Source: an uncultured Chloroflexia bacterium | GTDB taxonomy: Bacteria > Chloroflexota > Anaerolineae > Promineifilales > UBA4811 | Length of the DNA stretch: 64,000 nt | Reading direction: 5' to 3' | NCBI GenBank assembly: GCA_963695825.1 | Contig: CAVOHX010000009.1 | Coordinates: 133,168-197,167, forward strand | Shown: positions 1,986 to 18,631 of the stretch, one piece after another | Numbering within the stretch: position 1 is the first letter of the stretch | How the letters are laid out: the number at the start of each line of letters is the position of its first letter | Translations under genes and position numbers: made by a program | The notes under the pieces: generated by a model | Database searches by the model: none | The model's input: the letters and a program-made list of their open reading frames with translations, nothing else | What the model was told of the DNA's origin: nothing

Positions 1986-4505
1986 ATGTCAGCCTATAAA
2001 AAGTTTAGCCTGTTGTTAAGCGTCCTGATCGTCTTGTCGATGATCCTGGCGGCTTGCGGCGGCGAGGACCCGACCGCCACGCCCAAGCCGCCCGAGCCGA
2101 CGGAGGAGACGCACGAAGAGACGGCCGAAGAGACGACCGAGGAAGCCGGAGACCTGCTCGACCAGGTGATGGCGGCCGGCAAGCTGGTCGTCTCTACCGA
2201 TCCCAACTATGCTCCGCAGAGCTTTCTGAACGATGCCGGCGAGCTGGATGGGTTTGATGTAGAAGTCGCCGAAGAAGTCGCCAAGCGCCTGGGCGTGGAT
2301 ATCGAGTTCACGACCCCGGACTGGGACCTGCTAACCGGCGGCAACTGGGGCGGCCGATGGGATCTCAGCATCGGTTCCATGACCCCGACCGAGCCACGCG
2401 TCGAGGTGCTCTGGTTCACCGACGCCTATTATTTCACGCCTGCGTCCTTTGCGGTGCACAAGGACAACACCTCCATCGGCTCGGTGGGCGATCTGGCGGG
2501 CACTACCCTGGGGTTGGGCACCGCCACCACCTATGAAGCCTACCTGGATGGTTCACTGGCCATCATTGGCGGCGAGGTCCTGTACGATCCGCCTTCGGGC
2601 ATTGAGGTCAAGCCCTACTCGACCGACGCCGAGGCGATTCAGGATCTGGCCCTGGGCGACGGCGTCCGACTGGACGCGGTGATGTCGGCACAGCCGACGA
2701 TTCAGAACGCCATTGACCAAGGTATCCCGCTCAAGTATGTGGGCACGCCAGCCTTTTACGAGCCGCTGGCCTTTGCGTTGGACAAGAGCCGCGGCCCGTC
2801 GGACCACATGGTGGCCAAACTGAACGAGATCATCGCGGCGATGCACGGTGACGGCACCTTGTCGGAACTCTCGATCAAGTGGTACGGCATCGACATCACC
2901 AAACTCGTCGCTCCGGGAGAAGAAGCAGCCGTGGAAGTCTGCACCATGGTCGATGGCCTGATGGTTTGCGAGGCGCCCAATTGCGACTATGGCGGCCAGA
3001 TGCTCAAGATGGAAGCGGTGGACGAGATGACTGTCCAGTTCACCCTGTGTGCACCGGATGTGGCTTTCCCGTCCAAGGTCGCCTTTTCGGCGTTTGCCAT
3101 CCACCCCTCGGAGTATCTCGAATTCACCGGCGGAGGGGGTCAACTGGTAGACAATCCTGTCGGGACTGGCCCCTACATGCTCCAGGAGTGGCGTCGCGGC
3201 GAGCAGATCATCATGGTCAGGAACCCTGACTACTGGGGCACGCCGGCTATCGCCGATACGCTGGTCTTCCGCTGGAGCACCGAGGGCGCGCAGCGACTGG
3301 TCGAGCTCCAGTCGGGCAGCGTTGACGGCATCGACAACCCGAGCCCTGATGATTTCCCCACCATCGAGGCGGATTCGAACCTGACGCTCTACCGACGTGA
3401 GGCGCTCAACATCTTTTACCTGGGGATGAACAACTTTTTCCCGCCGTTTGACAATGAAGTGGTGCGCCAGGCCGTTGCCATGGGCATCGATCGCCAGCGT
3501 ATCGTGGATAACTTTTATCCCGAGGGCTCGGAGGTTGCGTCCCACTTTGTGCCCTGCACAATCCCCGGCGGCTGCGAGGGTGAGGAGTGGTACGAGTTTG
3601 ACGTGGACGCTGCCAAGGCGCTGCTGGCTGAAGCGGGTTTCCCCGACGGCTTTGAGACCAAGATCAGCTATCGCGACGTTTTTCGCAGTTACCTGCCGGA
3701 GCCTGGCCTGGTGGCTCAGGATCTTCAGGCGCAGTTAAAGGCCAATCTCAACATCGATGCCGAGATCGTCGTCATGGAGTCGGGCGAGTTCATCGACGCC
3801 GCCGACGCGGGCGAGTTGGAGGGCTTTCACCTGCTGGGCTGGGGCGCCGACTATCCTGACTGCACCAACTTTCTCGACTATCACTTTGGCGCGGGTGCGT
3901 CGGACCAGTTTGGTGACGGCTTTGAGGACATCTGGGATGCGTTGCGACGCGCTGGTTCGCTGTCCATCCAGGCGGAGCGTAACCCGATCTACGGCGAGGC
4001 CAACGACCTGATCCGGCAACACGTGCCCATGATCCCGGTGGCACACGGAGGCTCGGCGACGGCTTTCCGCGCCGACGTTGCTGGCGCGCATTCCAGCCCG
4101 CTGGGCAACGAGAGCTTCAAGGTGACAGACCCCGGTGGGCGTGACACCATGATCTGGATGCAGAACGCCGAGCCGATCGGCCTCTACTGCGCCGACGAGT
4201 CCGATGGCGAATCGCTGCGGGCTTGCGAGCAGATCAACGAATCGCTGCTGGCCTACATGGTGGCAGGCACCGCCGTCGAGCCATCGCTGGCCGAACGCTA
4301 CGAGGCAAATGAAGAGTTGACAGTGTGGACGTTCTACCTGCGGCCGGGCGTCAAGTTCCACGACGGCACCGATCTGGACGCGAACGACGTGATCCTGTCG
4401 TTGGTGCTTCAGTGGGATGCCGAGCACCCGCTGCATGTGGGTCGTGATGGTTCGTTCACCTACTGGCCAGGTCTCTTTGGCCCGTTCCTGAACGCGCCCG
4501 AGTAG
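1986..4505 (+). CDS. Lipoprotein with an SBP family 3 (polar amino acid-binding) domain fused to a circularly permuted SBP family 5 (Dpp/Opp-type) domain.
   Basis: Lipobox LAAC follows a hydrophobic signal peptide. The SBP3-like block runs from LVVSTDPNYAPQSF to DGFDVEVAEEVAKRLG. The SBP5 core starts at MEAVDEMTVQFTL and includes PVGTGPYMLQEWRRGEQIIMVRNPDYWG. The canonical SBP5 N-terminal block (TVWTFYLRPGVKFHDGTDLDANDV...SFTYWPGLFG) sits at the extreme C-terminus. Confidence 0.85.
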   Translation: MSAYKKFSLLLSVLIVLSMILAACGGEDPTATPKPPEPTEETHEETAEETTEEAGDLLDQVMAAGKLVVSTDPNYAPQSFLNDAGELDGFDVEVAEEVAKRLGVDIEFTTPDWDLLTGGNWGGRWDLSIGSMTPTEPRVEVLWFTDAYYFTPASFAVHKDNTSIGSVGDLAGTTLGLGTATTYEAYLDGSLAIIGGEVLYDPPSGIEVKPYSTDAEAIQDLALGDGVRLDAVMSAQPTIQNAIDQGIPLKYVGTPAFYEPLAFALDKSRGPSDHMVAKLNEIIAAMHGDGTLSELSIKWYGIDITKLVAPGEEAAVEVCTMVDGLMVCEAPNCDYGGQMLKMEAVDEMTVQFTLCAPDVAFPSKVAFSAFAIHPSEYLEFTGGGGQLVDNPVGTGPYMLQEWRRGEQIIMVRNPDYWGTPAIADTLVFRWSTEGAQRLVELQSGSVDGIDNPSPDDFPTIEADSNLTLYRREALNIFYLGMNNFFPPFDNEVVRQAVAMGIDRQRIVDNFYPEGSEVASHFVPCTIPGGCEGEEWYEFDVDAAKALLAEAGFPDGFETKISYRDVFRSYLPEPGLVAQDLQAQLKANLNIDAEIVVMESGEFIDAADAGELEGFHLLGWGADYPDCTNFLDYHFGAGASDQFGDGFEDIWDALRRAGSLSIQAERNPIYGEANDLIRQHVPMIPVAHGGSATAFRADVAGAHSSPLGNESFKVTDPGGRDTMIWMQNAEPIGLYCADESDGESLRACEQINESLLAYMVAGTAVEPSLAERYEANEELTVWTFYLRPGVKFHDGTDLDANDVILSLVLQWDAEHPLHVGRDGSFTYWPGLFGPFLNAPE

Positions 4506-4530
4506 TTCTGTCCCCGGACAGATTGATGCA

Positions 4531-4586
4531 CCGAGACAGAGGATACGGCGAAGGTCCGGATTCGGACATCCCGGCCTCTGTCTCGG
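4531..4586 (+). promoter_or_regulatory. Intercistronic stem-loop between the binding-protein gene and the permease genes, with a perfect 12-bp stem.
   Basis: ccgagacagagg (4531-4542) pairs perfectly with cctctgtctcgg (4575-4586). An inner stem gtccg/cggac is also present. There is no strong U-tract downstream. Confidence 0.5.
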
Positions 4587-4604
4587 TTGCAGAGTGTTTG
4601 CCCA

Positions 4605-4668: not shown

Positions 4669-4703
4669 TCGCCTTTCCCAGACAGTGTAGACAGGCCGAC
4701 CTC

Positions 4704-5777
4704 ATGACGGGTTACGTGTTTCGCAGGCTACTCTTGGCCATCCCCGTGCTGTTGGGCATTGTCTTTGTCGTGTTTGCGCTGGTGCGCATGATCCCGGGCG
4801 ACCCCTGCCGGGCCGCGCTGGGCGAGCGCGCCACCGACGAGATTTGCGATGCCTATATCGCGCGGCGCGGGCTTGACCAGCCGATTCCGGTCCAATTCTT
4901 CCGCTACCTGGGCGAATTGGTTCGGTTTGACTTGGGCGATTCGTTCCGGCAGGGTCGGCCGGTCACCGAAATGCTGACCGAAAAACTCCCGGTCACGATT
5001 GAATTGAGCATGTCGGCCTTGCTCTTTGCCGTGGCCGTGGGTATGCCGCTGGGCATCGTCTCGGCTTACCGGCACAACTCGACGCTTGATGTGGTGACAA
5101 TGGTCATCGCCAACGTCGGCGTGTCGATGCCGGTCTTTTGGCTTGGGTTGATGCTCCAGTACGTTTTTGCCGTCCTGCTGCGTGACACGGCGTGGCAACT
5201 GCCTCCCTCCGGCCGGCTGGCGGCCGGGCTCACGATTGCACCGCTGTACGATACCTGGGGCTGGGAGGTGAGCGGGGTTGCCAAGAGTCTCACCGAGTTT
5301 ATTTCAAATATGCACATCGTGAACGCGTTGGTGACCGGCAATTGGAAGGTCCTCGGGGATGCGCTCAAGCATATGGTTCTGCCGGCAATTGCCTTGGGCA
5401 CGATTCCCATGTCGATCATCGCCCGCATGACCCGTTCCAGCCTGTTGGAGGTCATGGGGCTGGAGTACATCCGGACAGCCCGCGCCAAAGGGCTGCGCGA
5501 ACAGGCGGTGATTCTGCGCCATGGCCTGCGCAACGCCATGTTGCCGGTCGTCACAGTAATCGGCCTCCAGTTTGGGTTGCTCCTGGCTGGAGCGGTGCTC
5601 ACCGAGACCATCTTTGGCCTCTCGGGGATTGGTCGCACGCTGTATGATGCCATTACCGGCCGCGACTATCGCGTGGTTGAAGGCTTTACCCTGGTGATTG
5701 CGGTCATCTTTATCGGCGTCAACATGGTGGTGGACGTCTCGTACGCCTACCTGGACCCGCGGGTGCGTCTGGACTAG
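4704..5777 (+). CDS. Peptide/nickel-type ABC transporter permease (DppB/OppB family).
   Basis: N-terminal MTGYVFRRLLLAIPVLLGIVFVVF. The family-typical motif YIRTARAKGLRE and the tail VVDVSYAYLDPRVR are present. Confidence 0.9.
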   Translation: MTGYVFRRLLLAIPVLLGIVFVVFALVRMIPGDPCRAALGERATDEICDAYIARRGLDQPIPVQFFRYLGELVRFDLGDSFRQGRPVTEMLTEKLPVTIELSMSALLFAVAVGMPLGIVSAYRHNSTLDVVTMVIANVGVSMPVFWLGLMLQYVFAVLLRDTAWQLPPSGRLAAGLTIAPLYDTWGWEVSGVAKSLTEFISNMHIVNALVTGNWKVLGDALKHMVLPAIALGTIPMSIIARMTRSSLLEVMGLEYIRTARAKGLREQAVILRHGLRNAMLPVVTVIGLQFGLLLAGAVLTETIFGLSGIGRTLYDAITGRDYRVVEGFTLVIAVIFIGVNMVVDVSYAYLDPRVRLD

Positions 5778-5802
5778 CCAGAGGCGGCTACGGATAGAAG
5801 AG

Positions 5803-6801
5803 ATGCCGACTCCCGAGAACCAAGATACCCGATCTGGCGATCGACCAGTGGACCTTTTGGACCATGACCTGGCGACCATGGACGAGGTGCTGCGACATGC
5901 GCCCAGCAGCCTCTGGCGGGATGCGCTGCGGCACGTTTTTCGCAAGCGATCCGCCATTGTGGGGATGACTATCCTGGGTGTGCTGGTATTGATCGCCATC
6001 TTTCATCCGCTGCTGGCTACCCACGATCCCAGCATCCCCATGTTGGATATCCCGGAGGAGGTGGCGGCCGGGGTTCGCAAACGAACTCCGCCGTGTATCC
6101 ATCTGCTGGGCTGCCCCGAAGAGCAGCCGCAGCACATCCTGGGCCTGGATGGGAATGTGCGGGACTTTTTCAGTCGCATGATGTACGGCTCCAAGTGGTC
6201 GCTGATCATTGGCTTTACCACGGTTACCTTTGCCATCATCGTGGGTACCATCCTGGGTGCGGTGGCGGGCTATGCCGGCGGATGGGTGGACAATGTCATC
6301 ATGCGGCTGATGGATGTCCTGCTTGCGTTTCCGTCGTTGATTCTCGCCATCGCCATTGTGACTGTGCTGGGGCCCGGCCTGGTTAACGCTCTGCTGGCGA
6401 TCGGCATTGTGTCGATACCGGTCTACGCCCGGATCATGCGGGCCAGCGTGCTGTCGGTCAAGGAGACGGATTACGTCGAGGCGGACCGCGCCCTTGGGGT
6501 TGGCTCGACGCGTTTGCTGTTTCATCGAATCCTGCCCAATGCTCTGACGCCGCTGATTGTCCAGGGGACCCTGGGGATCGCAACCGCTATCCTGGACGCG
6601 GCCGCCCTATCGTTTCTGGGTCTGGGAGCGCAACCGCCGATGCCCGAGTGGGGGTCCATGCTAGGCGCTGAACGCAACCAGGTTTTCAGCGCCCCACACC
6701 TGGTTTTCTTTCCCGGCATCGCCATCATGCTGACGGTCTTGAGCTTTAACCTGCTGGGCGACGGGTTGCGCGATGCGCTGGACCCGCGTCTGAATCGGTG
6801 A
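5803..6801 (+). CDS. Peptide/nickel-type ABC transporter permease (DppC/OppC family).
   Basis: ATG at 5803 lies downstream of the dppB-like stop. Motifs DYVEADRALGVGSTRLLFHRILPN and LGDGLRDALDPR are present. Confidence 0.9.
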   Translation: MPTPENQDTRSGDRPVDLLDHDLATMDEVLRHAPSSLWRDALRHVFRKRSAIVGMTILGVLVLIAIFHPLLATHDPSIPMLDIPEEVAAGVRKRTPPCIHLLGCPEEQPQHILGLDGNVRDFFSRMMYGSKWSLIIGFTTVTFAIIVGTILGAVAGYAGGWVDNVIMRLMDVLLAFPSLILAIAIVTVLGPGLVNALLAIGIVSIPVYARIMRASVLSVKETDYVEADRALGVGSTRLLFHRILPNALTPLIVQGTLGIATAILDAAALSFLGLGAQPPMPEWGSMLGAERNQVFSAPHLVFFPGIAIMLTVLSFNLLGDGLRDALDPRLNR

Positions 6802-6812
6802 AAGGACCAGCG

Positions 6813-7846
6813 ATGGCGATGGCAGATGGCGTCCAGAACCAGGCTGCAGTAGCCGATCAGCGGCCGGCGGCCGACGACATCCTGCTCGATGTGCGTGATT
6901 TGAGGACTCACTTTCACACGCTGGATGGTGTGGTCAAGGCAGTGGATGGGGTGGATTTGGCCGTGCGACGGGGGGAGGTTGTTGGGCTGGTCGGTGAATC
7001 GGGCTGCGGCAAAAGCGTGACGTCGTTCTCAGTGCTACGCCTGATCGCTCATCCCGGCCGGATTGAATCGGGTGAGGTCTGGTTTGATGGGACTAACCTG
7101 CTTGAACTTCCCATCAAAGAGATGACCCGCATCCGCGGCCGCCGTATCTCGATGATCTTTCAGCAGCCGACCGCCTGTTTGAACCCGGTCTACAACACGG
7201 AGTACCAACTGGCTGAGGTCTATCGCATTCACCAGAACCTGAGCCGCAAAGTCGGCCGCCAGCGTGCGCTGGAACTACTGCAAAAGGTCGGCATTCCAGA
7301 TCCCAAGCGTCGCTTGAAGGCGTTTCCGCACGAGCTCTCGGGCGGAATGGCGCAGCGGGTGATGATTGCCATGGCGCTCGCCTGCAACCCGACTTGCTCA
7401 TCGCCGATGAGCCGACCACGGCTCTGGATGTGACGATTCAGGCCCAGATTCTGGACCTGATGCGTGAACTTCAGGCCGAGCTGGGCGCGGCGATTGTCCT
7501 GATCACCCACGACCTGGGTGTTGTGGCCGAGATGGCTTCGCGCATTGCCGTCATGTACGCTGGCCAGATCGTAGAAGAGACCGACATCCGCAGCCTTTAT
7601 CGGTCACCCCAGCACCCATATACGATCGGTCTCATCGGATCGATCCCGGTGCTGGGCCAGATCAAGACCGAGCTTGACGTGATCCCGGGGACGGTGCCGA
7701 ACCTGATCGAGCTGCCCCCGGGCTGTCGGTTTGCCCCTCGATGCCGGGCGCGGGTAGAGAGGCAACTCGATATCTGCCTGCACGAGATCCCGCCATTGGA
7801 TCAGACTGCACCCGGTCACCTGGTCCGTTGCTGGCTTTATTCTTAA
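6813..7846 (+). CDS. Peptide ABC transporter ATP-binding protein (DppD/OppD family), with one frame break near 7390.
   Basis: ORFs 6798-7433 and 7394-7846 join as ...[10 protein letters not shown]|[21 protein letters not shown]. Motifs: [17 protein letters not shown], and the oligopeptide C-terminal motif GCRFAPRC. Confidence 0.85.
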
Positions 7847-7851: not shown

Positions 7852-8875
7852 ATGTCCGTCGAACTCGATTGGTTGGTCCAAGAGTCGGAAAGTACTGTGG
7901 AGAACCTGATAGAAGTCCAGGATCTGGTAAAGCATTTCCCGGTCAAGGGAGGCTTGCTTCAACGTGTTCAGGGGTGGGTCAAGGCGGTCGATGGGGTCAG
8001 CTTTGCCATCCGCAGAGGTGAGACGCTGGGCTTGGTGGGCGAGTCGGGCTGTGGCAAGACAACGGTCGGGCGTACCTTGTTGAGACTGATCGAGCCCACC
8101 GCCGGAAAGGTCTTTTTCGAAGGGCGGAATCTCACCCAGTTGACCGCAGAGGAGATCAAACCGCTGCGGCGTGAGATGCAGTTGATCTTTCAGGATCCCT
8201 TTTCGTCGCTGGACCCTCGCTCACAGATTGCCGACGTCATCGGCGAGGGGCTCTATGTCCACGGTCGAGAAGGACGGCAATGAGCGGCGAAGGCAGGTAC
8301 TGGAGATTATGCGCCGGGTGGGGCTGGCAGAGGATCATTTGCGCCGCTATCCGCACGAGTTCTCGGGCGGACAGCGACAGCGCATTGGCATCGCGCGGGC
8401 ATTGATCCTGCGCCCCAAGTTCATCGTGTGTGACGAGCCGGTCTCGGCACTGGATGTGTCAATACAGGCTCAGGTCCTCAACCTATTGCGGAAGCTCCAG
8501 CGCGATTTTGACCTGACCTACCTGTTTATCGCCCACAACATGAGCGTGGTCGAGCACATCAGCGACCGGGTTGCTGTTATGTACCTGGGCAAAATCGTCG
8601 AGATTGCCGGGCAACGCAGTCTCTACAGCAACCCACTTCACCCCTACACCCAGGCCCTGCTGTCAGCGATTCCGGTGGCTGACCCCGACCGCAAGCGACA
8701 GCGGGAAATACTCACCGGCGATGTTCCCAGCCCGCTGAACCCGCCCTCTGGCTGCCGCTTCCACCCTCGCTGTCCCATCGCCAGCACGGATTGCTCGTCG
8801 ATTCAGCCGGAGCTGCGCTCACTGGCGCCTGATCATCAGGTGGCATGTCACTATGCGGAGCAGTTCCTGGTGTAG
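7852..8875 (+). CDS. Peptide ABC transporter ATP-binding protein (DppF/OppF family), with one frame break near 8265.
   Basis: ATG at 7852 lies 6 nt after the dppD-like stop. ORFs 7741-8283 and 8228-8875 join. Motifs: [33 protein letters not shown]. Confidence 0.85.
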
Positions 8876-9041
8876 GTCGGGACACGGCCGGTTGTAGCTG
8901 TTGTCTCTGGTCGGAGGATTGCAGACAGGAGGAGGTGGCCTTGGCTGAGGCGAGCGATGTACTCGACAGCCAGCCAACCCCCAAGCTGCCGGCCGACTGA
9001 TGGCACGCGCGCGTTCAGGCGCTCATGAGGAGGAAACCAAT

Positions 9042-11186
9042 ATGGAGATGCCTGCCGCTTCACAGGAGAAATCGGACCACAAGCTGGTCAGATGGTTGTT
9101 GAATCTGGTCGCCATCACGGTGGCCCTGAGCCTGCTGTATGCTGTACTGTTTTACCTCGGCGGGCCGGTCCGCTTGGCAGTGGTCACCGAGGTGTTGGAC
9201 CTGGCGTTTAAGACTGACGGCGAGCAGCTAGCGGTTGCAGCGCAGGACGGCACGGTCTGGCTCTACGATGTGAGCCGAGACTGGGCGGCAACCGCGCTCT
9301 CTGATCACGAGGCGCCGGTCATCGACGTAGCGATATCCCCTGATGGCTCTTCCCTGGTGTCCGTCGATCAAGAGGGTGAGGTCCGAATCTGGCAGGTTCC
9401 CGGGGGCCGGGTTGAGAAAGCGTTCAGCACCGGGGGCCCAGTGAGTCAGGCAGCCGTTGCGGCCGACGGATCGGTGTTGGCGACCTTGGGCGGCGATGAT
9501 ATCATCCGCACCTGGGAATTGCCCTCCGGTGATCAGCTTCAGTCCATTGGTCCCGAGGAGGGGGTTGGCCTATCGGTCGCGGTGAGTGCAGACGGCTCGC
9601 TGGTGGCGGCCGGCGTGGACGACAAGATCGGCCTCTGGGACTCGCACACCGGGGCGTTGGTGCGCACCCTGGAGGGCTATTGGGAGGATGAAACCCAAGA
9701 GGATTGGCTCGGGCACGACGAGGAAGTCACGGCGCTCGCCTTTAGTCCGGACGGGGAGATGCTCGCCTCGGGCAGCGCGGACACGACGATCAACTTTTGG
9801 GGAGTGGACACGGGCGAGGTGATTTGGCCGTCCGAGGGACACTGGGGGACAGTGACCAAGCTGGTGTTCAACGCCGAAGGCGATCTACTTCTTTCGGGCG
9901 GCAAGGACAACAAGGTCCGGAGTTTCCGGGTAGCCGGCGGTAGAAGCACCGCGCTGTACGAGGGGCACGTGGGTACCATCAATGGCGTCGCCTTTGGACC
10001 TACGCCCGATACCATTCTCACGGCCGCCAACGATGGCTCGGTGCGTCTCTGGGAGACAGCCAACCAGAAGGTCCAACACATCGAGTGGCCTCGGTATGGC
10101 CTGCAATCGGTGTGGGGCGACCTCTTTGGCATCTGGACACTCGTCAGCGGCGTTCTCGGCGCGATATGCCTGGTTGGCCTGCGCCGACGCAAGACATGGA
10201 GCCATCTGGTAACACTGGCGCTGTTCCTGGTGGGACCCATCGTGGTGCTTGGTCTTCCTCTGCTCGAGGCGCTATCGTATCCGATATCGACTGGTATCAA
10301 ACTGCAAATTGGTTGGCCCTTGGTGTTGCTCGCTGCCTGGTATTCGGCGTTGGTGGTGTTGCTAATGCGGGACAGCGTCGTGGCCGTGTATGAGGCTCCG
10401 CGTGATGTGCCGTTGGCCGACCGCTTGGTGATCAGCCAACGCACCGCCAAATCCCGTTTTGGGATCTTTGGTTTGGGGACGTGGATGCTGGTGTTGGTGC
10501 TGCTCTATTCCGTGCTGCGACGCTTTAACCTCGACATCGCGTTCATGGGCCACTTTTTCTCCTTTATCATGCAGGGGAGCTGGATCACGCTGCGCATCTC
10601 GGCCATCTCTATCCTGCTGGCGGTGGTCCTGGCCCTGGTGGGCGCCTTGGGGCGTCTGTCCAAGAACCCGGCTGCGAACGGCTTGGCCAGCTTTTATGTG
10701 TCGCTCATTCGTGGCACACCGCTCCTGGTGCAGGTGTACATTTGGTACCTGGGTTTGCCGCGGTTGGACATTGTGCTTCCCGGAGAGCTAGCCGGCATAT
10801 TGGCGCTCGGGGTGAACTATGGCGCCTATATGTCAGAAACCTTTCGCGCGGGGATTCAGGCGATTGGCAAGGGGCAGTACGAAGCGGCGCAGGCGTTGGG
10901 GATGACGCGAGGGCAGACGTTTCGCAGGATCGTTCTACCACAGGCCTTCCGTATTGTGATTCCACCGATTGGCAACGATTTCATCGCCATGATGAAGGAC
11001 TCGTCGCTGGTGTCGGTGATGGCCATCTGGGAGCTGACGTATCGGGCGCAAAAGATCGGCCGGCAGAACTTTCGCAACATGGAGACCTTTATCATCGCCG
11101 CCGCGTTCTACTGGCTGCTGACGGTGGTATTCCAATTCCTTCAGGGCAAGCTGGAGGATTACATGGCTCGCGGCGAAAGGAGGTAA
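9042..11186 (+). CDS. Seven-bladed WD40 beta-propeller fused, through extra TM helices, to a HisM/GlnP-type polar amino acid ABC permease.
   Basis: AGGAGG lies 8 nt before the ATG at 9042. One N-terminal TM helix precedes seven WD-like repeats ending WLYDV, RIWQV, RTWEL, GLWDS, NFWGV, RSFRV and RLWE. About four TM helices follow. A complete permease domain ends the protein (GTPLLVQVYIWYLGLP, AAQALGMTRGQTFRRIVLPQA). Confidence 0.85.
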   Translation: MEMPAASQEKSDHKLVRWLLNLVAITVALSLLYAVLFYLGGPVRLAVVTEVLDLAFKTDGEQLAVAAQDGTVWLYDVSRDWAATALSDHEAPVIDVAISPDGSSLVSVDQEGEVRIWQVPGGRVEKAFSTGGPVSQAAVAADGSVLATLGGDDIIRTWELPSGDQLQSIGPEEGVGLSVAVSADGSLVAAGVDDKIGLWDSHTGALVRTLEGYWEDETQEDWLGHDEEVTALAFSPDGEMLASGSADTTINFWGVDTGEVIWPSEGHWGTVTKLVFNAEGDLLLSGGKDNKVRSFRVAGGRSTALYEGHVGTINGVAFGPTPDTILTAANDGSVRLWETANQKVQHIEWPRYGLQSVWGDLFGIWTLVSGVLGAICLVGLRRRKTWSHLVTLALFLVGPIVVLGLPLLEALSYPISTGIKLQIGWPLVLLAAWYSALVVLLMRDSVVAVYEAPRDVPLADRLVISQRTAKSRFGIFGLGTWMLVLVLLYSVLRRFNLDIAFMGHFFSFIMQGSWITLRISAISILLAVVLALVGALGRLSKNPAANGLASFYVSLIRGTPLLVQVYIWYLGLPRLDIVLPGELAGILALGVNYGAYMSETFRAGIQAIGKGQYEAAQALGMTRGQTFRRIVLPQAFRIVIPPIGNDFIAMMKDSSLVSVMAIWELTYRAQKIGRQNFRNMETFIIAAAFYWLLTVVFQFLQGKLEDYMARGERR

Positions 11187-11190: not shown

Positions 11191-11967
11191 ATGACTGAAG
11201 AGCGACAGACTCGAGAGTCCAAGACGATGATCAAGGTACGCGACCTGCACAAGTTCTTTGGACCTCTGCACGTCATCAGAGGGGTGGACCTGGAGGTGGC
11301 GCAGCGCGAGGTCGTGGTAATCATTGGGCCATCAGGCGGCGGCAAGAGCACGTTTTTGCGCTGCTTGAACTTTCTTGAAGAGCCGTCGGCCGGCACGATC
11401 GAGGTAGATGGGGTGGAGATCAGGGCGCGCGAGCCGGCCCGCGAGCAGCGCAAGCACATACGGGAGATCCGGCAAAAAGCGGGCATGGTGTTTCAGCAAT
11501 TCAACCTGTTTCCACACATGACGGCGATTGGCAACATTATCGAAGCGCCGCTCACGGTAAAGAAAATGTCCCGGCCGGAGGCCGTGGCCAAGGGTGAGGA
11601 GCTGTTGAGGTGGGTTGGCCTATCGGAGAAACGGGACGAGTTCCCCTCCCGGCTCTCGGGCGGCCAGCAGCAGCGCGTCGCGATCGCTCGGGCGTTGGCG
11701 ATGGAGCCCAAGATTATGCTATTCGACGAACCTACCTCGGCGCTCGATCCGGAGCTGATCGGCGAGGTGGTAGAGGTGATGGAGCGCATGGCGGACGAGG
11801 GCATGACCATGGTGGTGGTGACCCATGAGCTGCATTTCGCCCGTGACGTGGCTGATCGCGTGATTCTGATGGCCGACGGCGTGTGGGGAGAAATGGCTCC
11901 CCCCGACGTGTTTTTTACGAACCCCAAGGAGGAGCGTACGCGCCAGTTTCTGGCTCACATCTTGTGA
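11191..11967 (+). CDS. Polar amino acid ABC transporter ATP-binding protein (GlnQ/HisP family).
   Basis: AAGGAGG RBS. Motifs: GPSGGGKST, LSGGQQQRVAIARALAMEP, IMLFDEPTSALDPE, VVTHELHFARDVADRV. Confidence 0.9.
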   Translation: MTEERQTRESKTMIKVRDLHKFFGPLHVIRGVDLEVAQREVVVIIGPSGGGKSTFLRCLNFLEEPSAGTIEVDGVEIRAREPAREQRKHIREIRQKAGMVFQQFNLFPHMTAIGNIIEAPLTVKKMSRPEAVAKGEELLRWVGLSEKRDEFPSRLSGGQQQRVAIARALAMEPKIMLFDEPTSALDPELIGEVVEVMERMADEGMTMVVVTHELHFARDVADRVILMADGVWGEMAPPDVFFTNPKEERTRQFLAHIL

Positions 11968-12250
11968 GTTCAGGCGCCGTCGTGTAACGCGGGTATTGAG
12001 GAGAGGAACGATGTTCACTGGTATGGGGTGGCCAAATCTCGCCAGTGGCCTCTAATCCATAGCCCCAGGTGGGCAGATGCGACTGGCTCAAGCGGGCGGC
12101 AAGGGGCCGCTTTGTCTTGTGCCGGCGGCCGTGGGCGGCGTTCAACGCGGCTATCCTCCGCTCTGCCCGTTCCCCATGTGAAAACTAAAGGCAGGTTGCC
12201 GTCTCGCCTGCCGAGATGAACAGACCGTGAATATCAAGGAGAAAAGCGTC

Positions 12251-13716
12251 ATGAGACCGAAACTGAACATACTCGGCGACGAACTGGTTGAGCAGATCAT
12301 CGCTGAAGGATTCGAGTTGCTGATGGACCCGGGCGTCCGGGTCCACAATGCCGAAGCGCTCCGGTTGCTAGCAGAGGCCGGTGCCGCAAGTGCACATGGA
12401 CACGATGATCGCTCACATACCGCAGGCGTTGGTACGAAAGGCGCTAGAGACGCGCCCATCCGAGTTTTATCTCTACGATCTGGACGGCGAGCGGTGGTGC
12501 ATTACGGGGGCGACAGCGTGCAGTTTGACCCCGGCTCGGCCGCCATCACCATCCTGGACAGCGAAACCCAGGAGCAGCGCGTCCCGGTGACGGCCGACTT
12601 TGTCAAGTTTGTCAAGCTGGTGGAGATGATCCCCCAGTTGGACGCCCAGAGCACGGCGATGATCTGCGTCGACGTCCCGGAAGAGGTCGGCGACCTGTAC
12701 CGCCTCTACCTGGCGCTCAACTATATGCGCAAGCCCATCATCACCGGCGCGTTCCGCAAGGACACCTGGTGGACCATGAAGGACATGCTGGTGGCGATGG
12801 TGGGCAGCGAAGAGGCGCTGGCGGCCAAGCCAATCGCCGTGTTCGATGTCTGCCCGTCGCCGCCTTTGCTGTGGAGCGATCTGACCTGCCAGAACATGAT
12901 CGACTGCGGCGCGCTATGGCATCCCGTCGGAGCTGGTCTCGATGCCGCTCGCGGGCGCCACGGCGCCGGTCACCCTGGCGGCCGCGGTTGTCCAGCACAC
13001 GGCCGAGTGCATGAGCGGCGTGACCATCTGCCAATTGGCGCAGGAGGGTGCGCCCATCGTGTGGGGCGGCTCGCCGGCTGCCTTTGACATGCGCGAAGGC
13101 ACCACCCCGATGGGAGCGGTTGGCACCTGGATGATTGACTGCGCCTACACTCAGGTCGGCAAGGCGCTGAACATGCCGACCCACGCCTACCTGGGCATGT
13201 CGCGATGCCAAAGTCGTTGACGCCCAGTGTGGACTCGAGTCGGCCGGCGGCACGATCATGGCGGCGCTGGCGGGCGTCAACATGGTGTCCGGCGCCGGCA
13301 TGATGGACTTTGAGAGCTGCCAGAGTTTCGAAAAGCTGGTGATCGACGCCGAGATCATCGGCATGGCCAAGCGGCTCATCGCCGGTGTCGAGGCGCGCGA
13401 ACAGCCGATTGCGCTGGGTCTGATGCGCAAGCTCCAGCACCGGGCAGACTACCTGGCCCAACCGCATACCCTCAAGTGGTTCAACAAAGAGCTGTACATC
13501 CCGTCGTCGGTGATCGACCGCGCCTCCCTGGATGGCTGGAAGAAAAAGGGCGCCAAAACGACGTGGGAGCGCGCCCAAGACCGCGTGAAGCAGTTGCTGG
13601 CAGCCTATACGCCGCCCGCGGTGTCGGCCGACTTGCGCGCCGAACTGCGGAATATTGCGACCAGTGCGGCGAGCAAATTCGGCATGGACGAATTGCCGCC
13701 GCTCGCTTTTGACTAA
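12251..13716 (+). pseudogene. MttB-superfamily (trimethylamine methyltransferase-like, non-Pyl) methyltransferase, broken by at least 4 frame shifts near 12388, 12491, 12910 and 13202.
   Basis: AAGGAG precedes the ATG at 12251. Fragments in three frames join collinearly: ...AEAGA|VHMDTMIAHIPQALVRKALETRPSEFYLYDLDGER|VVHYGGDSVQFDP...NMIDC|ARYGIPSELVSMPLAGATAPVTLAAAVVQHTAE...AYLGMS|DAKVVDAQCGLESAGG...GAGMMDFES. No in-frame TAG is needed. The breaks may be sequencing indels rather than true decay. Confidence 0.75.
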
Positions 13717-13747
13717 CACCCACCAATCAAGCCTAAGGAGCGCAGAG

Positions 13748-14392
13748 ATGTCAGATGATCTGTATAAACAAATGGTCGCCAGCATTATTGAGGGCGATCC
13801 GGATGTCACGGTAGAGCTGACCAAACAGGGGATTCAAGCCGGTCTTGAGCCGCTTGATATCGTTAACCGGGGCCTGGTGCCGGGGATGGATGTCGTTGGG
13901 GAAAAGTTCCAGACCGGAGAGTACTTTTTGCCCCATCTGATCATCGCTGCTTCGGCCATGCAGCAGGCGATGGCGTTGCTGGAGCCCGAGTTGCAGGCAC
14001 GGCAGCAGGTGGTGGAGGTGGTGGGTACGGTGGTAATCGGCACCGTCGAGGGCGACATCCACGAGATTGGCAAGTCGCTGGTGGCGACCATGTTGTCCGC
14101 GCACGGCTTTCAGGTGTACGATCTGGGAATCGACGTGGCGACCGAGACCTTTGTGGCTGCGGTAAGGGAAAAAGGCGCCAATCTACTGGGGTTGTCAGCG
14201 CTTCTGACCACTACCATGACGGCCCAGCGCAAGGTGATCGAGGCGCTGGACGAGGCGGGCATTCGCGACCAGGTCAAGGTCCTCGTCGGCGGCGCGCCGG
14301 TCAGCCAGGAGTGGGCCAACACAATCGGCGCTGATGGGTATGCGGAGGATGCGATTGGCGCGGTGGAGGTGGCCCGCCAACTGGCAGCCTAG
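13748..14392 (+). CDS. Corrinoid (cobalamin-binding) protein of the methyltransferase system (MtbC/MttC/MtgC-like).
   Basis: An N-terminal B12-binding_2-like helical cap is followed by the DxHxxG motif in GTVEGDIHEIGKSLV. The Rossmann-like segment LLGLSALLTTTM...VLVGGAP is also present. Confidence 0.9.
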   Translation: MSDDLYKQMVASIIEGDPDVTVELTKQGIQAGLEPLDIVNRGLVPGMDVVGEKFQTGEYFLPHLIIAASAMQQAMALLEPELQARQQVVEVVGTVVIGTVEGDIHEIGKSLVATMLSAHGFQVYDLGIDVATETFVAAVREKGANLLGLSALLTTTMTAQRKVIEALDEAGIRDQVKVLVGGAPVSQEWANTIGADGYAEDAIGAVEVARQLAA

Positions 14393-14591: not shown

Positions 14592-16055
14592 ATGGCAGGC
14601 TCGATCAAAGCCATCACCGACCCCCGATTCAAGCTGGCGGTGCTCAGCGCCGAGGATGTTGAGACGCTCCACACTGCCACGCTGGATGTAATCGAGAATG
14701 TCGGAGTGCGGTTTCCCAGCACGCGTGCCCTCGATATCTGGGAGTCCCACGGCGCGCTGGTTGACCGGGACAGTATGATTGTCCGCGCCCGTGGGGAGCT
14801 GATCCAAGACGCCCTTAAACAAGCGCCACCCCTCTACACGCTGGCGGCGCGCGATTCTGCGTTGGACCTGGCTCTGGATGGGAATCACGCCTACGTGGGC
14901 ACCGACGGTTGTGGGGTGCAGGTGGTCGATATCGAAACTGGAGAGCGCAGGCAGTCCCGTCTGCAGGACGTGGTCGAGATCGCGCGGGTTGCAGATGCGT
15001 TAGAGCAGGTGGCTTTTCATTGGGTAGCGGTCTCGGCTCAAGACTGTCCCCCAGAGACACGCGGCCTGTACGAGATCAAGGCAATCTGGGAAAACTCGAC
15101 CAAGCACGTGCAGACCGAGAGTATCTACTCGGAGCACGAAGCACGGGCAGCAATCGAGATGGCAGCGGCGATCGCCGGCGGCCGTGATGTGCTGCGCCAG
15201 CGGCCGGTCCTGTCCATCATGCAGTGCACGCTGTCCCCGCTGGGCCAGGACGGCGGCAGTCTGGACGCGGCCTTGATCGGCGCCGAGGCCGGCCTACCGG
15301 TGGGCTTTATGACGATGGCTTCCTGCGTGACCACCGGCCCCGCCACACCGGCAGGGAATCTGGTGGTGGGCAACGCAGAGGTGGTAAGCGCCACAGCCTT
15401 GATCCAGCTTGCGCATCCCGGCGCGCCGGTTTTCTACGCGGCGGCTCAGACGGCGGCCGATCTGCGGACCGGGGCCTACACCGGGGGCGGCCCCGAGGAT
15501 TTCCTGTTTGGCGCGGCGACCAACCAGTTGGCCGATTATTATGACATTCCGCTTTCAATGGGCGCGTTTGCCACCGGGGCCAAAGAGCCCGATTGGCAAG
15601 CAGGTGTCGAGAACAGCCTCTCCTGCCTGATGGCGTCGGCCGTGATGTCCGATATGATGTTGGGGATAGGTTTGCTGCACGGCAGCCGTATCTGGTCATA
15701 CGAGCAGATGCTCATGGATTGTGAGGTGTTTGACATCGTTCACGGCATGATGCAGGGGATCGTCGTGAACGATGACACACTGGCACTGGACGTGATCCGG
15801 CAGGTGGGGCCAGGCGGCAACTTTCTCGCCCAAAAGCACACCCTGCAGAACATGGGCGGACTCTGGGTACCCAAATACATGGATCGGCGGCCGTACCAGG
15901 TGTGGGAAACCAAGCGGGACGGCGCCCGGGATTGGGCCAGGAGCGAGGCGCAACGAATCCTGCGCAATCATCAGCCCGAGCCTCTGGAGACGGGCCTGGC
16001 GGCCGAGCTTGCCAGCATCATCGCCTCGACCGAGCGCAGGATCAAGCGCCAGTAG
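14592..16055 (+). CDS. MttB-superfamily methyltransferase, intact, with no amber codon (non-pyrrolysine type, substrate unknown).
   Basis: GAAAGGAG RBS precedes the ATG at 14592. The 487-codon ORF is uninterrupted. Family-typical blocks are present: LSAEDVETLHTATLDVIENVGVRF, GPATPAGNLVVGNAEV, GGNFLAQKHT. Confidence 0.88.
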   Translation: MAGSIKAITDPRFKLAVLSAEDVETLHTATLDVIENVGVRFPSTRALDIWESHGALVDRDSMIVRARGELIQDALKQAPPLYTLAARDSALDLALDGNHAYVGTDGCGVQVVDIETGERRQSRLQDVVEIARVADALEQVAFHWVAVSAQDCPPETRGLYEIKAIWENSTKHVQTESIYSEHEARAAIEMAAAIAGGRDVLRQRPVLSIMQCTLSPLGQDGGSLDAALIGAEAGLPVGFMTMASCVTTGPATPAGNLVVGNAEVVSATALIQLAHPGAPVFYAAAQTAADLRTGAYTGGGPEDFLFGAATNQLADYYDIPLSMGAFATGAKEPDWQAGVENSLSCLMASAVMSDMMLGIGLLHGSRIWSYEQMLMDCEVFDIVHGMMQGIVVNDDTLALDVIRQVGPGGNFLAQKHTLQNMGGLWVPKYMDRRPYQVWETKRDGARDWARSEAQRILRNHQPEPLETGLAAELASIIASTERRIKRQ

Positions 16056-16153
16056 AGCGTCAGGGGCGGGCGCTCGATTTGACCACCCACGCTTTGCAGT
16101 TAGAATTCTGAGGCGGGTGTGACTGCCCGCAAAGGATAAACTCGGAGAGCTGA

Positions 16154-18631
16154 ATGCTGACAAGGCGACCATTGCTGTGGCTTGCGCCGGTGGTGCTGAT
16201 ACTGCTGATCTCTGGCTGTTCCCGCGCCGACGAACCGGCCGGAACACTGGTCCCGGCCGAGGCTACACCGGAGCAAGCGAGCGAGCCTGAACCGACCCCG
16301 CTGCCCGAGATAACGATCGTCGAGCGCGAGCAGTTGGTGGTGGGCGTCGATGCGGCGTTCCCACCCTTTGTGGATCTCAATCGGGATGGCGAGTATATCG
16401 GCATCGAGGTTGATCTATTTGCCGCCATCGCTGATCTCGCCGGCCTGGACTATCAGCTTCAGAGCGCCGACTGGGACGCAGTTTTCGACGACCTGATTAG
16501 TGGGCGGTTCAACATGGTGTTTGGAGGGCTGGTGCAAGACAATGCGCCAGCCGCCCTGGTCGAGCTCACAGAGCCCTACTTTGAGTTGGGCCAGGTGGCG
16601 GTCACGCGGGGGAATAGAGAAGACATCACGGCTCTGGAAGACCTGGCGGGCGCCACCGTTGGCGTCGTTCCTCTCTCCTGGGGAGAATATGCCGTCACGG
16701 GCCAGTCGTCCTCCTTGCCAGGAGGCTACCAGGTGCCGCCAGGCAACATCCGGCATTATGACACCGCCGAGAAGCTGGTGGAAGCGCTCTTTGCTGACTA
16801 TGTGGATGTCATTGTCACCGATCACACGGTGATCGAGAGCTTTCTCGCCGTCAACCCAGACGATATGCGCGTTCTGCGGCCGCGGGGCCAGGAGGGAGAA
16901 GGGGCGGGCTCCGACGCATGGCTGGCGGCTCATCGTTTTCACATCGCGGTCCCCAAGGGGGCCGACGAGTTGCTCGCCTCACTGAACGCAGCCATTGAGC
17001 AGGCCCGGTCCGAGGGCCAGATTGCGGCGGTAATGGAGGGGTGGGGCTTTGTACCCGAGTTTGTCGAACGCCCCCGATTCGTCCAGGACGCCGGGGCATC
17101 CTCGCTGATTGCGGGCGTCGAAAAGGTGGACGATATGACGGTTCGATTCGTCCTCAACCGACCGGACCCCAACTTTGATTACAAAATGGCGGTCCCGGCG
17201 ATGGCCATCCATAGCCCGGCGAACCTAGAGCTGTACGCCGGCGGGGACCTCGGTCTGAACCCGGTTGGCACCGGTCCATATGGTCTGGCTGGATGGGAGC
17301 CAGGCCAGGCGCTCACGCTGACCGCCAGTCCCAGCTATTGGGGAGTGGCGCCGCTGATTGACACGATTCTGGTGCGGACGGTCCCGGACGCGGCCGAACG
17401 ATTTCGATTGTTAAAGGCCGGCGAGGTTCAGTTGGTGGACAGCCTGGGGCCAGAGGACTTGGCGGCGCTCGAAGAAGAGGAAGATGAAAAGATCGTCGTC
17501 TATCCCCGGGCGCCGGTCAACATCGCTTACCTGGGTATGAATCGTGATACGGCGCCGTTTGACGAGCGCCTGGTTCGGTTGGCGGTAGCCACGTGTATCG
17601 ATCAACCGGCGCTGGTAGAGACGGTGTATCCGACGGGCACGCTGGTGGCGCACCAGTTCGTGCCGCCTAACACTTTTGGCTTTTCCCCAGGATTGCTGTG
17701 GTACGATCAGGACAGTGAAGGCGCCGCGGCATTGCTCGCGGATGCCGGGTATTCTGCGGAGCTTGCACTGACCTTGAGCTTTGCCAATGTGCCCAGCGAC
17801 TACCTGCCTGAACCGAGGTTGATCGCCGAGGCGATCCGGGGCCAGCTTGGCGCCTGTGGGATCACGACCACATTGGAGAGCCTCGACGCCGACACGTATG
17901 TTGAACGCCTGGAGGCAGGCGAGCTGCCGTTGCATCTGGGTGGCTGGTCGGCCGATTATCCCGGCCCGATCAGTTTTTTGAACACCCATTTCACCGGCGT
18001 GGGGACCGGTCTGCAATTCGGCGCCCCTTTTCCGGAGGTAGTTGAGCGGCTCGAGCAGGCGGCCGAGAGTTCAGATCGTACGCTTCGCCAGGAGCTATAC
18101 AATCAGGTGAATCAGTTGCTTAAGGAAAAGGTCGTTTTCGTGCCCTTGGCGCATGGTAGCTCGGCGCTGGCTGCCCGATCCACGCTGAACGGTGTCGTCA
18201 CCAACCCTGTGCGGCGGGAATCACTGACCCGGGTGGGACCCTTTACGGACACAGCGACGATCACCACTTTTGTCTATGCCGTGCGCAGCGATCCGCTCTC
18301 CTTGGATCCGACCGACGAATGGGATGATGCAACATTCGAGATAACCAGCCAGGTTTATGACACGTTGGTCGATTTCGAGCCGGCGACGACAGTGCTCACG
18401 CAGGGGCTGGCGATCGAGTGGTCCTCCAACGAGAGCTATGATGTCTGGGAATTCACCCTGCGGCCGGGGGTGCGTTTCCAGGACGGAACGCCGCTAACTG
18501 CCGACGCCGTTATCGTGAACTTTGAACGGCTGTGGGATCCAGAACACCCGTGGCGCAACGGTCGCACAGGGGCATTTCGGTATTTTCGGGCGCTTTTTGG
18601 GGGCTTTAAGGAACCTCAAGGGCGACAGTAG
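16154..18631 (+). CDS. Second lipoprotein with an SBP family 3 domain fused to a circularly permuted SBP family 5 domain (paralog of 1986-4505).
   Basis: Lipobox ISGC. SBP3 block LVVGVDAAFPPFVDLN...GIEVDLFAAIADLAG. The SBP5 core starts at VEKVDDMTVRFVL and includes PVGTGPYGLAGWEPGQALTLTASPSYWG. The canonical SBP5 N-terminal block (FVYAVRSDPLSLDP...WEFTLRPGVRFQDGTPLTADAV...AFRYFRALFGG) sits at the C-terminus. Confidence 0.85.
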   Translation: MLTRRPLLWLAPVVLILLISGCSRADEPAGTLVPAEATPEQASEPEPTPLPEITIVEREQLVVGVDAAFPPFVDLNRDGEYIGIEVDLFAAIADLAGLDYQLQSADWDAVFDDLISGRFNMVFGGLVQDNAPAALVELTEPYFELGQVAVTRGNREDITALEDLAGATVGVVPLSWGEYAVTGQSSSLPGGYQVPPGNIRHYDTAEKLVEALFADYVDVIVTDHTVIESFLAVNPDDMRVLRPRGQEGEGAGSDAWLAAHRFHIAVPKGADELLASLNAAIEQARSEGQIAAVMEGWGFVPEFVERPRFVQDAGASSLIAGVEKVDDMTVRFVLNRPDPNFDYKMAVPAMAIHSPANLELYAGGDLGLNPVGTGPYGLAGWEPGQALTLTASPSYWGVAPLIDTILVRTVPDAAERFRLLKAGEVQLVDSLGPEDLAALEEEEDEKIVVYPRAPVNIAYLGMNRDTAPFDERLVRLAVATCIDQPALVETVYPTGTLVAHQFVPPNTFGFSPGLLWYDQDSEGAAALLADAGYSAELALTLSFANVPSDYLPEPRLIAEAIRGQLGACGITTTLESLDADTYVERLEAGELPLHLGGWSADYPGPISFLNTHFTGVGTGLQFGAPFPEVVERLEQAAESSDRTLRQELYNQVNQLLKEKVVFVPLAHGSSALAARSTLNGVVTNPVRRESLTRVGPFTDTATITTFVYAVRSDPLSLDPTDEWDDATFEITSQVYDTLVDFEPATTVLTQGLAIEWSSNESYDVWEFTLRPGVRFQDGTPLTADAVIVNFERLWDPEHPWRNGRTGAFRYFRALFGGFKEPQGRQ

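Follow-up and report, generated by a model that had tools for sequence, protein, structure and literature searches.

Eleven co-directional, tightly spaced genes occupy positions 1986-18631 on the plus strand of a 64-kb stretch of contig CAVOHX010000009.1 from an uncultured Chloroflexia bacterium. The whole stretch is referred to as the window, and all positions are those of the window. According to the listing of open reading frames (ORFs) and to Pfam and NCBIfam scans, the cluster begins and ends with a gene for a chimeric lipoprotein in which substrate-binding proteins (SBPs) of two families are joined. Between them lie the genes for the translocators of two ATP-binding cassette (ABC) importers and for two MttB-like methyltransferases with a corrinoid protein. 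The gene order, with all genes on the plus strand, had been proposed in an earlier annotation of the sequence (the original prediction) and was confirmed by these scans.

The first gene encodes chimeric receptor 1 (type 1, 839 aa; 1986-4505), which matched SBP_bac_3 and, in two stretches, SBP_bac_5. It is followed by dppB for a DppB-type permease (357 aa; 4704-5777; BPD_transp_1_N and BPD_transp_1) and by dppC for a DppC-type permease (5803-6801; OppC_N and BPD_transp_1), the start codon of which is uncertain. The genes for the DppD-type ATPase (6798-7846) and the DppF-type ATPase (7852-8875) were each read as two ORFs with ABC_tran and oligo_HPY matches, separated by one frame break near 7385-7391 and 8265-8270, respectively. 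A PAAT-family permease with a WD40 domain (728 aa; 9000-11186; WD40 families and BPD_transp_1) and a GlnQ/TcyN-type ABC ATPase (258 aa; 11191-11967; ABC_tran) come next. MttB-like protein 1 (MttB1; 12251-13716) was recognised from three ORF pieces matching PF06253, the corrinoid protein (214 aa; 13748-14392) from B12-binding_2 and B12-binding, and MttB-like protein 2 (MttB2; 487 aa, intact; 14592-16055) from PF06253. The cluster ends with chimeric receptor 2 (type 2, 825 aa; 16154-18631), which matched SBP_bac_3 and SBP_bac_5.

Circularly permuted SBP5 modules in both receptors

In both receptors an SBP3 module is followed by an SBP5 module that is circularly permuted. The description of the two lipoproteins as SBP3-SBP5 double receptors in the original prediction thus stands, but the permutation of SBP5 in both had been missed. 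In receptor 1, a signal peptide with the lipobox LAAC (Cys24, ...MILAAC24GG; the lipoboxes of both receptors were read straight from the translations) is followed by a Pro/Glu/Thr-rich linker, an SBP3 module at about residues 57-305 and a DppA-like SBP5 module at about residues 326-839. C24 is nearly invariant among the aligned type-1 homologs. When compared with PDB sequences by phmmer, residues 341-711 of receptor 1 aligned to residues 133-507 of HbpA/DppA, and residues 729-829 aligned to residues 17-124. Likewise, positions 64-365 of the SBP_bac_5 profile were matched first and its N-terminal ~125 residues last, i.e., the canonical N-to-C order is not followed. The stand-alone SBP5 lipoprotein P0093 (580 aa) is colinear with residues 326-837 of receptor 1 (73% identity). 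Thus, the permutation is older than the fusion.

An AlphaFold2 model of receptor 1, built with 13 homologs, had a mean pLDDT of 76.8. The best Foldseek matches of this model were DppA of Y. pestis and E. coli and GbpA, with a TM-score on the target of 0.58-0.66 over ~390 columns; as Foldseek aligns sequentially, these scores cover the colinear part, confirm the DppA-like fold only and are no test of the permutation. Receptor 2 carries the lipobox ISGC (Cys22, ...LLISGC22SR) after its signal peptide, again followed by a Pro/Glu/Thr-rich linker. With 30% identity, it is colinear with receptor 1 over the full length and is therefore also permuted. The family of receptor 2 is small (25 clusters, 52-65% identity), and a metagenome scan with receptor 2 returned two loci, one of which is L091.

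In DppA of E. coli, R383 and D436 are salt-bridged to the carboxyl group and the amino group of the dipeptide, and an R383D+D436R mutant shows no dipeptide binding (PMC12136057). These residues (E. coli precursor numbering) align to R567 and D622 of receptor 1, and none of the 12 aligned type-1 receptors lacks either of them. In SBP3 of receptor 1, R138 is the Arg of the T-x-E-x-R motif, which we take to correspond to R77 of HisJ, the clamp for the alpha-carboxylate. Judged by these residues, dipeptides and an alpha-amino acid are the most likely ligands of receptor 1. All 25 clusters of the receptor 2 family have Pro at the site of the SBP3 Arg and Ser or Thr at that of DppA R383 (Ser in receptor 2 itself), and the Asp is kept. 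Since the Arg has been lost in both modules, receptor 2 probably binds a different, non-carboxylate class of ligands. This residue pattern suggests a ligand with an amino group and no carboxylate at the clamp position. Receptor 2 would be an old paralog which uses the same translocators as receptor 1.

Frame breaks in the window were detected by alignment to intact orthologs from Anaerolineales bacterium UBA2181, the nearest relative (79-85% identity), and from related metagenome contigs. With intact orthologs as tblastn queries, dppD was read in frame 3 and then in frame 2 (343-aa ortholog), and dppF in frame 1 and then in frame 2. A DNA alignment to the intact 488-aa ortholog of UBA2181 placed four single-base indels in the MttB1 gene, near positions 12382, 12488, 12912 and 13203. 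The original prediction, correct in its gene order, had missed the frame breaks in dppD, dppF and MttB1. Compared to their orthologs, livF (1181-1890), plsY (18731-19370), htrA (22350-24506), dnaJ (two breaks; 24720-25665) and a tilS-like gene (two breaks; 26683-27399) were also broken, and the gene for an H+-pyrophosphatase (H+-PPase; 39205-41464) was likewise split. The break rate was about 0.3 per kb over the first 30 kb of the window. Since nearby housekeeping genes, which must be functional, are broken too, consensus indel errors of the assembly are the likeliest cause. The view that dppD and dppF are true pseudogenes was rejected in the light of the breaks in the plsY, dnaJ, tilS-like, htrA, livF and H+-PPase genes.

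Due to these probable uncorrected indels, single-gene "pseudogenes" and "fusions" in the window have to be treated with caution; the adjacent HtrA1 and HtrA2, for example, were artificially merged and read as one 718-aa ORF. The break rate and this merger would also fit the view that frameshifts of an error-prone assembly have joined neighbouring genes and produced the fused receptors, or the gene content as such, artificially. However, the same fusion with the same module order recurred in over 100 protein clusters stemming from numerous independent assemblies and sources, and both receptors are uninterrupted ORFs of ~2.5 kb which align end to end with their homologs. An artefact is thus essentially refuted.

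Matching of receptor modules and translocators

The translocator genes were assigned by family models and by comparison with characterised proteins. The DppB of the window scored 294 bits with the NCBIfam DppB model and aligned to E. coli DppB (8z1v) with E = 1e-79. The alignment was ungapped at the N-terminus, and E41 and R42 are present at the same positions. When E. coli DppA is docked, its residues R383 and D436 pair with E41 and R42 of the scoop loop of DppB (PMC12136057). DppC was 88% identical to DppC of UBA2181 from nucleotide 5866 onward. The PAAT-family permease carries the signature of TIGR01726 for three transmembrane (TM) helices at residues 520-617 (93 bits versus a cutoff of 42.2), and its scores with the TcyL, EhuC, EhuD and GlnP models were all below the cutoffs. 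The same holds for the GlnQ-type ATPase, which scored 336 bits with the NCBIfam model for TcyN, 309 bits with that for GlnQ and 295 bits with that for EhuA.

Based on hydropathy, the WD40-permease comprises TM1 (residues 33-51), the WD40 domain (64-374), TM2 (375-393) and the permease core (~510-728), with four further TM helices after the propeller. The WD40 domain contains 17 Lys+Arg versus 50 Asp+Glu, and a loop of nine residues after TM2 has four Lys/Arg. The propeller is therefore predicted to be extracytoplasmic by the positive-inside rule. A colinear arrangement of propeller and permease was found in only ~3-4 of 1.84 billion cluster representatives, in a search that was swamped by giant WD40 proteins. 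In a relative with 65% identity (L004:16767-18134), an acidic extracytoplasmic domain of 207 aa without any Pfam match replaces the WD40 propeller, and the PAAT permease of L005 carries nothing at this position. The replacement in L004 indicates that the N-terminal extracellular addition to the PAAT permease is itself modular.

Permuted receptors form a large family. At E <= 1e-20, 2588 homologs were retrieved. Among GTDB species representatives, at least 563 stretches were found, and nearly all of the 80 loci kept belong to Chloroflexota (Anaerolineae, Caldilineae, Ardenticatenia and Chloroflexia), with two binned as Actinomycetota. Four architectures were observed, namely permuted SBP5 alone, SBP3 + SBP5 (~820 aa), SBP1 + SBP3 + SBP5 (~1260 aa) and Peripla_BP_6 + SBP5 (911 aa). 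The permuted SBP5 module was 63-86% identical across lineages, irrespective of the presence of MttB. In comparison, identity of the SBP3 module was only 24-31% between lineages in which SBP5 was 72-86% identical (e.g., L004). Thus, the N-terminal module has been swapped or has diverged much faster.

For analysis of co-occurrence, the window proteins were compared by tblastn with 90 fetched loci, and species-representative loci with at least 6.5 kb of downstream sequence were counted. The 12 loci with a fused SBP3-SBP5 receptor contained dppBC in 11 cases, the PAAT permease in 10, the PAAT permease together with GlnQ in 8, dppDF in 2 and MttB in 1. For the 41 loci with permuted SBP5 alone, the respective numbers were 38, 1, 1, 8 and 0. 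Hence, dppB and dppC came after permuted SBP5 in 49 of 53 loci, and the PAAT permease was present in 10 of 12 loci carrying SBP3 as compared to 1 of 41 without it (Fisher p = 3.6e-8).

The receptor P0017 (L094:7018-21163) extends this pattern to a third importer. It has 1264 aa and combines a UgpB-like module, SBP3 and permuted SBP5. Its gene is preceded by genes for two UgpA/UgpE-like CUT1 permeases and followed by dppBCDF, the WD40-permease gene and glnQ, i.e., three receptor modules are encoded beside three matching translocators. The counts and this triple receptor are the strongest support for the assignment, made in the original prediction, of SBP3 to the PAAT permease and GlnQ and of SBP5 to the Dpp-type pair.

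Placement and residues of the MttB-like proteins

Both methyltransferases belong to the MttB superfamily. MttB2 scored 289 bits with PF06253 and covered profile positions 5-496 of 500, and the three pieces of MttB1 cover positions 29-490. Comparison of both proteins with MtgB and MttB in PDB gave E values of 1e-59 to 1e-70. They are not of the pyrrolysine (Pyl) type: the Pyl position is occupied by Met (ATG at 13197-13199) in MttB1 and by Ala in MttB2, and MttB2 scored 434 bits with TIGR02369, the model for Pyl-dependent MttB, versus a cutoff of 525. A scan of positions 1-22000 for riboswitches and other RNA elements returned only a sub-threshold match to PYLIS_3. This Rfam match (13197-13297, plus strand; 29 bits versus a gathering threshold of 38, E = 0.016) begins at the ATG that replaces the Pyl UAG codon and most simply reflects homology of the coding sequences. 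One of the MttB1 indels falls 4-6 nt downstream of the same ATG codon.

MttB1 and MttB2 share only 22-26% identity. Each was 27-32% identical to MtgB of D. hafniense and MttB of M. barkeri, the sequences of which were rebuilt from PDB alignments, and MtgB and MttB share 30%. Both proteins are thus as distant from MtgB as MtgB is from MttB. The MttB2 clade is very abundant and conserved in Chloroflexota, with more than 120 clusters at 71-80% identity.

Glycine betaine is bound in MtgB by Y97, R312, H348 and F356; R312 was reported as common to every functionally characterised member (MtgB, MtcB, MtyB, MtpB and MthB), and the equivalent Arg forms a salt bridge with the acidic group of the substrate (PMC13080624). 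All four residues are replaced in the two proteins of the window. Y97 corresponds to Gly/Cys in the MttB2 clade and to Ser in the MttB1 clade, R312 to Ser and His, H348 to Leu or a gap and to Ser, and F356 to Ser and to Glu or Leu (Glu in MttB1 of the window), respectively. The residues at the four sites are invariant within each clade, and neither clade carries the MtgB motif. It follows that MttB1 and MttB2 cannot be classed as MtgB or as one of the characterised demethylases of acidic quaternary amines. The corrinoid protein scored 236.5 bits with TIGR02370 (cutoff 215.3) and is a member of this family, with the DxHxxG motif present as GDIHEIG. With the MtgC and MtbC models, it did not reach the cutoffs (216 versus 310 and 210 versus 370 for the MtgC-specific models).

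No pterin-binding methyltransferase (MT2, the methylcorrinoid:tetrahydrofolate methyltransferase) and no RamA domain was found in any ORF of at least 180 aa in the 64-kb window, in agreement with the original prediction, nor were they found in the neighbourhoods of relatives; a coenzyme M (CoM) methyltransferase was likewise not found. The genes for MtgB, MtgC, MtgD and RamA of Ruegeria pomeroyi are scattered over separate loci of the genome (PMC12478193). A working demethylation pathway would thus be compatible with the lack of MT2 and RamA genes nearby. It could also be imagined that the two MttBs and the corrinoid protein are a self-contained transmethylase, in which one MttB loads the corrinoid protein and the other unloads it to an acceptor, replacing MT2. 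One corrinoid protein together with two MttBs of 22-27% identity was found in four contexts with no MT2 nearby, and the window has no MT2. Such a role is nevertheless very improbable, as MttB2 does not accompany MttB1 and the corrinoid protein in L096, L097 and L091, and MT2 and RamA are often found at distant loci. Moreover, no member of the MttB family is known to act as MT2.

The cluster is chromosomal and operon-like. It is preceded by livG and livF and followed, on the minus strand, by plsY, an arginase-family gene and htrA. A uniform GC content (0.59-0.63) was found, and the flanking genes are syntenic in relatives; therefore, the cluster is not a mobile island, and horizontal acquisition as an island was ruled out by the uniform GC content and the synteny of both flanks. 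The cassette of receptor and translocator genes adjoins plsY in L004, L005, L095 and the window. Synteny of the window with L096 and L095 extends from the region downstream of receptor 2, where L096 has a Fer4 gene, to about 30 kb, with arginase, baeRF, htrA, dnaJ and GH3 as shared downstream genes.

In the window, L096 (UBA2181-like), L097 and L091, i.e., in four of six receptor-2 lineages, the genes for MttB1 and the corrinoid protein separate glnQ from receptor 2. In L004 and L095, glnQ is directly followed by receptor 2. MttB2 occurs at this position in the window only and is absent from the syntenic locus of the closest relative. Of the 12 fused-receptor loci, 11 have the cassette without genes for MttB or a corrinoid protein, and the same is true of L004, L005 and L095. 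Thus, what is conserved as a unit is the chimeric receptor together with the translocators that match it, to which the methyltransferases have been added in a few lineages. With respect to synteny, the transporter cassette of the original prediction is kept in relatives, but its MttB set is lineage-restricted.

The trio of corrinoid protein, MttB2-type and MttB1-type proteins recurs elsewhere in Chloroflexota without transporters (L009:9342-15304, L010:9343-14309 and L093:9353-14186). In these loci, the MttB2 orthologs were 74-78% identical and the MttB1-type partner was 52-57% identical to MttB1. Therefore, the window has reassembled this trio inside a transporter cluster. MttB2 orthologs were also found among other MttB paralogs. 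As a side observation, the proximity of the trio to a lysine-2,3-aminomutase-like or an M20 gene hints at a methylated amino acid or beta-amino acid as substrate. An Anaerolineae contig (L007:6995-17254) contains four MttB-family genes or fragments interleaved with a gene of the alanine racemase fold, two C45 (AAT) peptidase-family genes, an amidohydrolase gene and an ordinary SBP5-dppBCDF operon.

The original prediction had read the whole cluster as one dedicated pathway for uptake and demethylation of a methylated amine or amino acid derivative. The co-directional, tightly spaced genes, the stable placement of MttB1 and the corrinoid protein in four of the six lineages and the loss of the carboxylate-binding Arg from receptor 2 and from both MttBs, which fits a shared non-acidic methylamine substrate, are in line with this reading. 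It is unlikely nonetheless. The cassette mostly lacks MttB and corrinoid genes, SBP5 of receptor 1 varies within the same range of identity regardless of MttB and keeps its dipeptide clamps, the residues of MtgB are gone, MttB2 is missing from the closest relative, and the window lacks MT2 and RamA.

Somewhat less doubtful, but still tentative, is the view that an operon for peptide and amino acid uptake took up the MttB and corrinoid genes at a permissive intergenic site, as passengers with no functional tie to the transporters. This would be consistent with the occurrence of the trio elsewhere beside unrelated genes (a KamA-like radical SAM gene in two loci, a hydrolase gene and an M20 peptidase gene) and with Uma2, DUF5647 and IS1595-type zinc-ribbon genes near the set in L097. 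Furthermore, a terminator-like hairpin (12094-12112, plus strand) was noted within the 284 nt separating glnQ from MttB1, and a sigma-70-like promoter match (TTGACC, 16 nt, TAGAAT; 16079-16106, plus strand) upstream of receptor 2. Evidence for both is weak, as the consensus scans for promoters and terminators gave site counts not above those of shuffled sequence. On the other hand, the insertion is found at the same position across lineages in which receptor 2 is only 52-65% identical. In addition, repeats flanking the MttB insertion in the window were chance-level matches only, and no mobile-element scars were found there.

A transporter and receptor model compared with known systems

With a probability of roughly 0.6, we propose the following model. 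The cluster, taken as that of an Anaerolineales (Chloroflexota) bacterium, would encode two type I ABC importers that are canonical in other respects, DppBCDF and a homodimer of the PAAT-family permease with GlnQ, the receptors of which are fused into single membrane-anchored lipoproteins with SBP3 in front of the permuted DppA-like SBP5. Each receptor module would serve its own translocator by passing its ligand on to it. The permuted SBP5 may dock on DppBC as DppA does, R567 and D622 pairing with E41 and R42 of DppB, and the SBP3 module may dock on the PAAT permease. MttB1 and the corrinoid protein would represent a lineage-restricted insertion between glnQ and receptor 2, to which MttB2 would have been added in this genome only. 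The MttBs presumably methylate the corrinoid protein from a methylated substrate that is neither glycine betaine nor another characterised acidic quaternary amine; the methyl acceptor enzyme and the reductive activase would lie elsewhere in the genome. A functional link between transporters and methyltransferases, i.e., uptake and demethylation of a non-acidic methylated amine, is plausible but unproven. It is kept plausible by the stable position of MttB1 and the corrinoid protein next to receptor 2 and by the parallel loss of Arg in receptor 2 and both MttBs.

Several observations weigh against this model. With four indels in 1.47 kb as compared to ~0.5 expected from the local error rate (Poisson P ~0.001), MttB1 may be a real pseudogene in this genome. 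The hairpin between glnQ and MttB1 and the promoter-like site before receptor 2, weak as they are, leave the boundaries of the transcription units unfixed. The ligand classes of both receptors were deduced from a few clamp residues, kept or lost. The WD40 propeller lacks an assigned role, and a function as docking platform or scaffold for the chimeric receptors is speculation. The rule linking modules to translocators has an exception in L022 (10001-17500), where a Peripla_BP_6 (LivJ-like) + permuted SBP5 receptor of 911 aa is followed by separate SBP3 genes, a PAAT permease gene and glnQ, and dppBC is absent nearby. Finally, 30 of the 38 loci with stand-alone permuted SBP5, dppB and dppC contained no ABC ATPase gene within ~9 kb downstream. 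In these loci, the ATPases would therefore have to be supplied in trans or shared. Powering of DppBC by GlnQ where dppDF is missing was considered and is not favoured, as most stand-alone loci lack any ATPase gene nearby and supply in trans is simpler. Loci without an adjacent ATPase gene include L026, L029-L031, L034-L042 and L045-L047.

A more far-reaching version, in which all parts are taken together, appears rather improbable. In this version, the chimeric lipoproteins would be multi-port hubs with the permuted DppA scaffold carrying SBP3, UgpB-like and LivJ-like receptors, so that one tethered protein would feed two or three translocators side by side with the WD40 propeller as docking platform. 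Receptor 2, MttB1 and the corrinoid protein would then form a new uptake and demethylation route for a non-carboxylated methylated amine; this last element is based on the lack of the clamp Arg in both modules of receptor 2 and the lack of R312 in the MttBs.

ABC importers are normally described with one receptor family per translocator, and tandem substrate-binding domains (SBDs) fused to GlnP are well known. The proposed model can be related to several characterised systems. The cluster shares with E. coli DppABCDF (1dpp, 8z1v-8z1z; PMC12136057) the homologs of DppB, C, D and F in the same order, and with DppA the fold (TM-score on the target as given above), the clamps equivalent to R383 and D436 and, in DppB, the partner residues E41 and R42. 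In contrast to DppA, the first ~125 residues are found at the C-terminus, and the protein is lipid-anchored and fused behind an SBP3 module. Moreover, dppDF is not adjacent in most Chloroflexota relatives. GlnPQ of L. lactis (6h30, 4kqp) likewise combines a PAAT-family permease with a GlnQ ATPase and keeps receptor domains tethered near the translocator, and HisJ and LAO, which share HisQMP, exemplify the use of one translocator by several receptors. Unlike in GlnPQ, SBP3 is fused here to an SBP of another family and not to the permease, and a WD40 propeller (the 207-aa acidic domain in L004) is found where GlnP carries its SBDs.

Natural permutation of a receptor has been documented once before, for a sugar binder. 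TpMglB-2 of Treponema pallidum is a tethered, circularly permuted "Cluster Bc" glucose-binding lipoprotein, and its new topology was suggested to be an adaptation to tethering (PMC4990184). As in the receptors described here, a tethered ABC receptor has been permuted naturally, and TpMglB-2 still works as a receptor. It differs in being a type I/cluster B sugar binder without a second receptor, whereas the permuted modules of the window are of the cluster C peptide type. In the literature searched, coverage of which was incomplete and gives no proof of novelty, no account was found of a permuted cluster C (SBP5) receptor, of fusions of SBPs from different families in one lipoprotein, or of their co-variation with co-encoded translocators. 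The Chloroflexota proteins thus represent a large, so far undescribed family in which a cluster C receptor has been permuted and repeatedly fused to other families, with modules that track the translocators. This family may serve as a test case for the relation of tethering and topology to receptor docking, for the physical clustering of importers and for receptor modularity in monoderm-like Chloroflexota.

The methyltransferase set resembles MtgB/MtgC/MtgA and the E. limosum systems of MtpB, MtcB, MtyB and MthB (PMC13080624, PMC8604678, PMC12155760) in that a non-Pyl PF06253 TIM-barrel protein is encoded beside a TIGR02370-type corrinoid protein. Besides the distance from MtgB and the replaced binding residues, it differs from these systems by the lack of an adjacent MT2 or RamA gene and by the sharing of one corrinoid protein by two divergent MttBs. 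For R. pomeroyi MtgBCD, it was shown that an MttB-family enzyme and a corrinoid protein work with distant MT2 and RamA in an organism that is neither methanogenic nor acetogenic; there, glycine betaine is the substrate, and the corrinoid protein is phylogenetically distinct and shared with methionine synthesis (PMC12478193). A precedent for MttB in Anaerolineae was not found in the literature searched. In metagenomes, both MttB clades are common, and none of the known substrate-binding residues is present in either. The two clades mark unassigned substrates of corrinoid-dependent demethylation, which would lie outside methanogens and acetogens, and receptor 2 provides a concrete handle for identifying one of them.

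Further downstream in the window, a 1052-aa ORF on the minus strand (43581-46739) combines a serine hydroxymethyltransferase (residues 48-393) with a GcvT-type aminomethyltransferase (residues 633-1003). About 240 residues between the two domains are without any match. This ORF could be a true fusion of one-carbon metabolism, or neighbouring genes could have been joined by an indel of the assembly.

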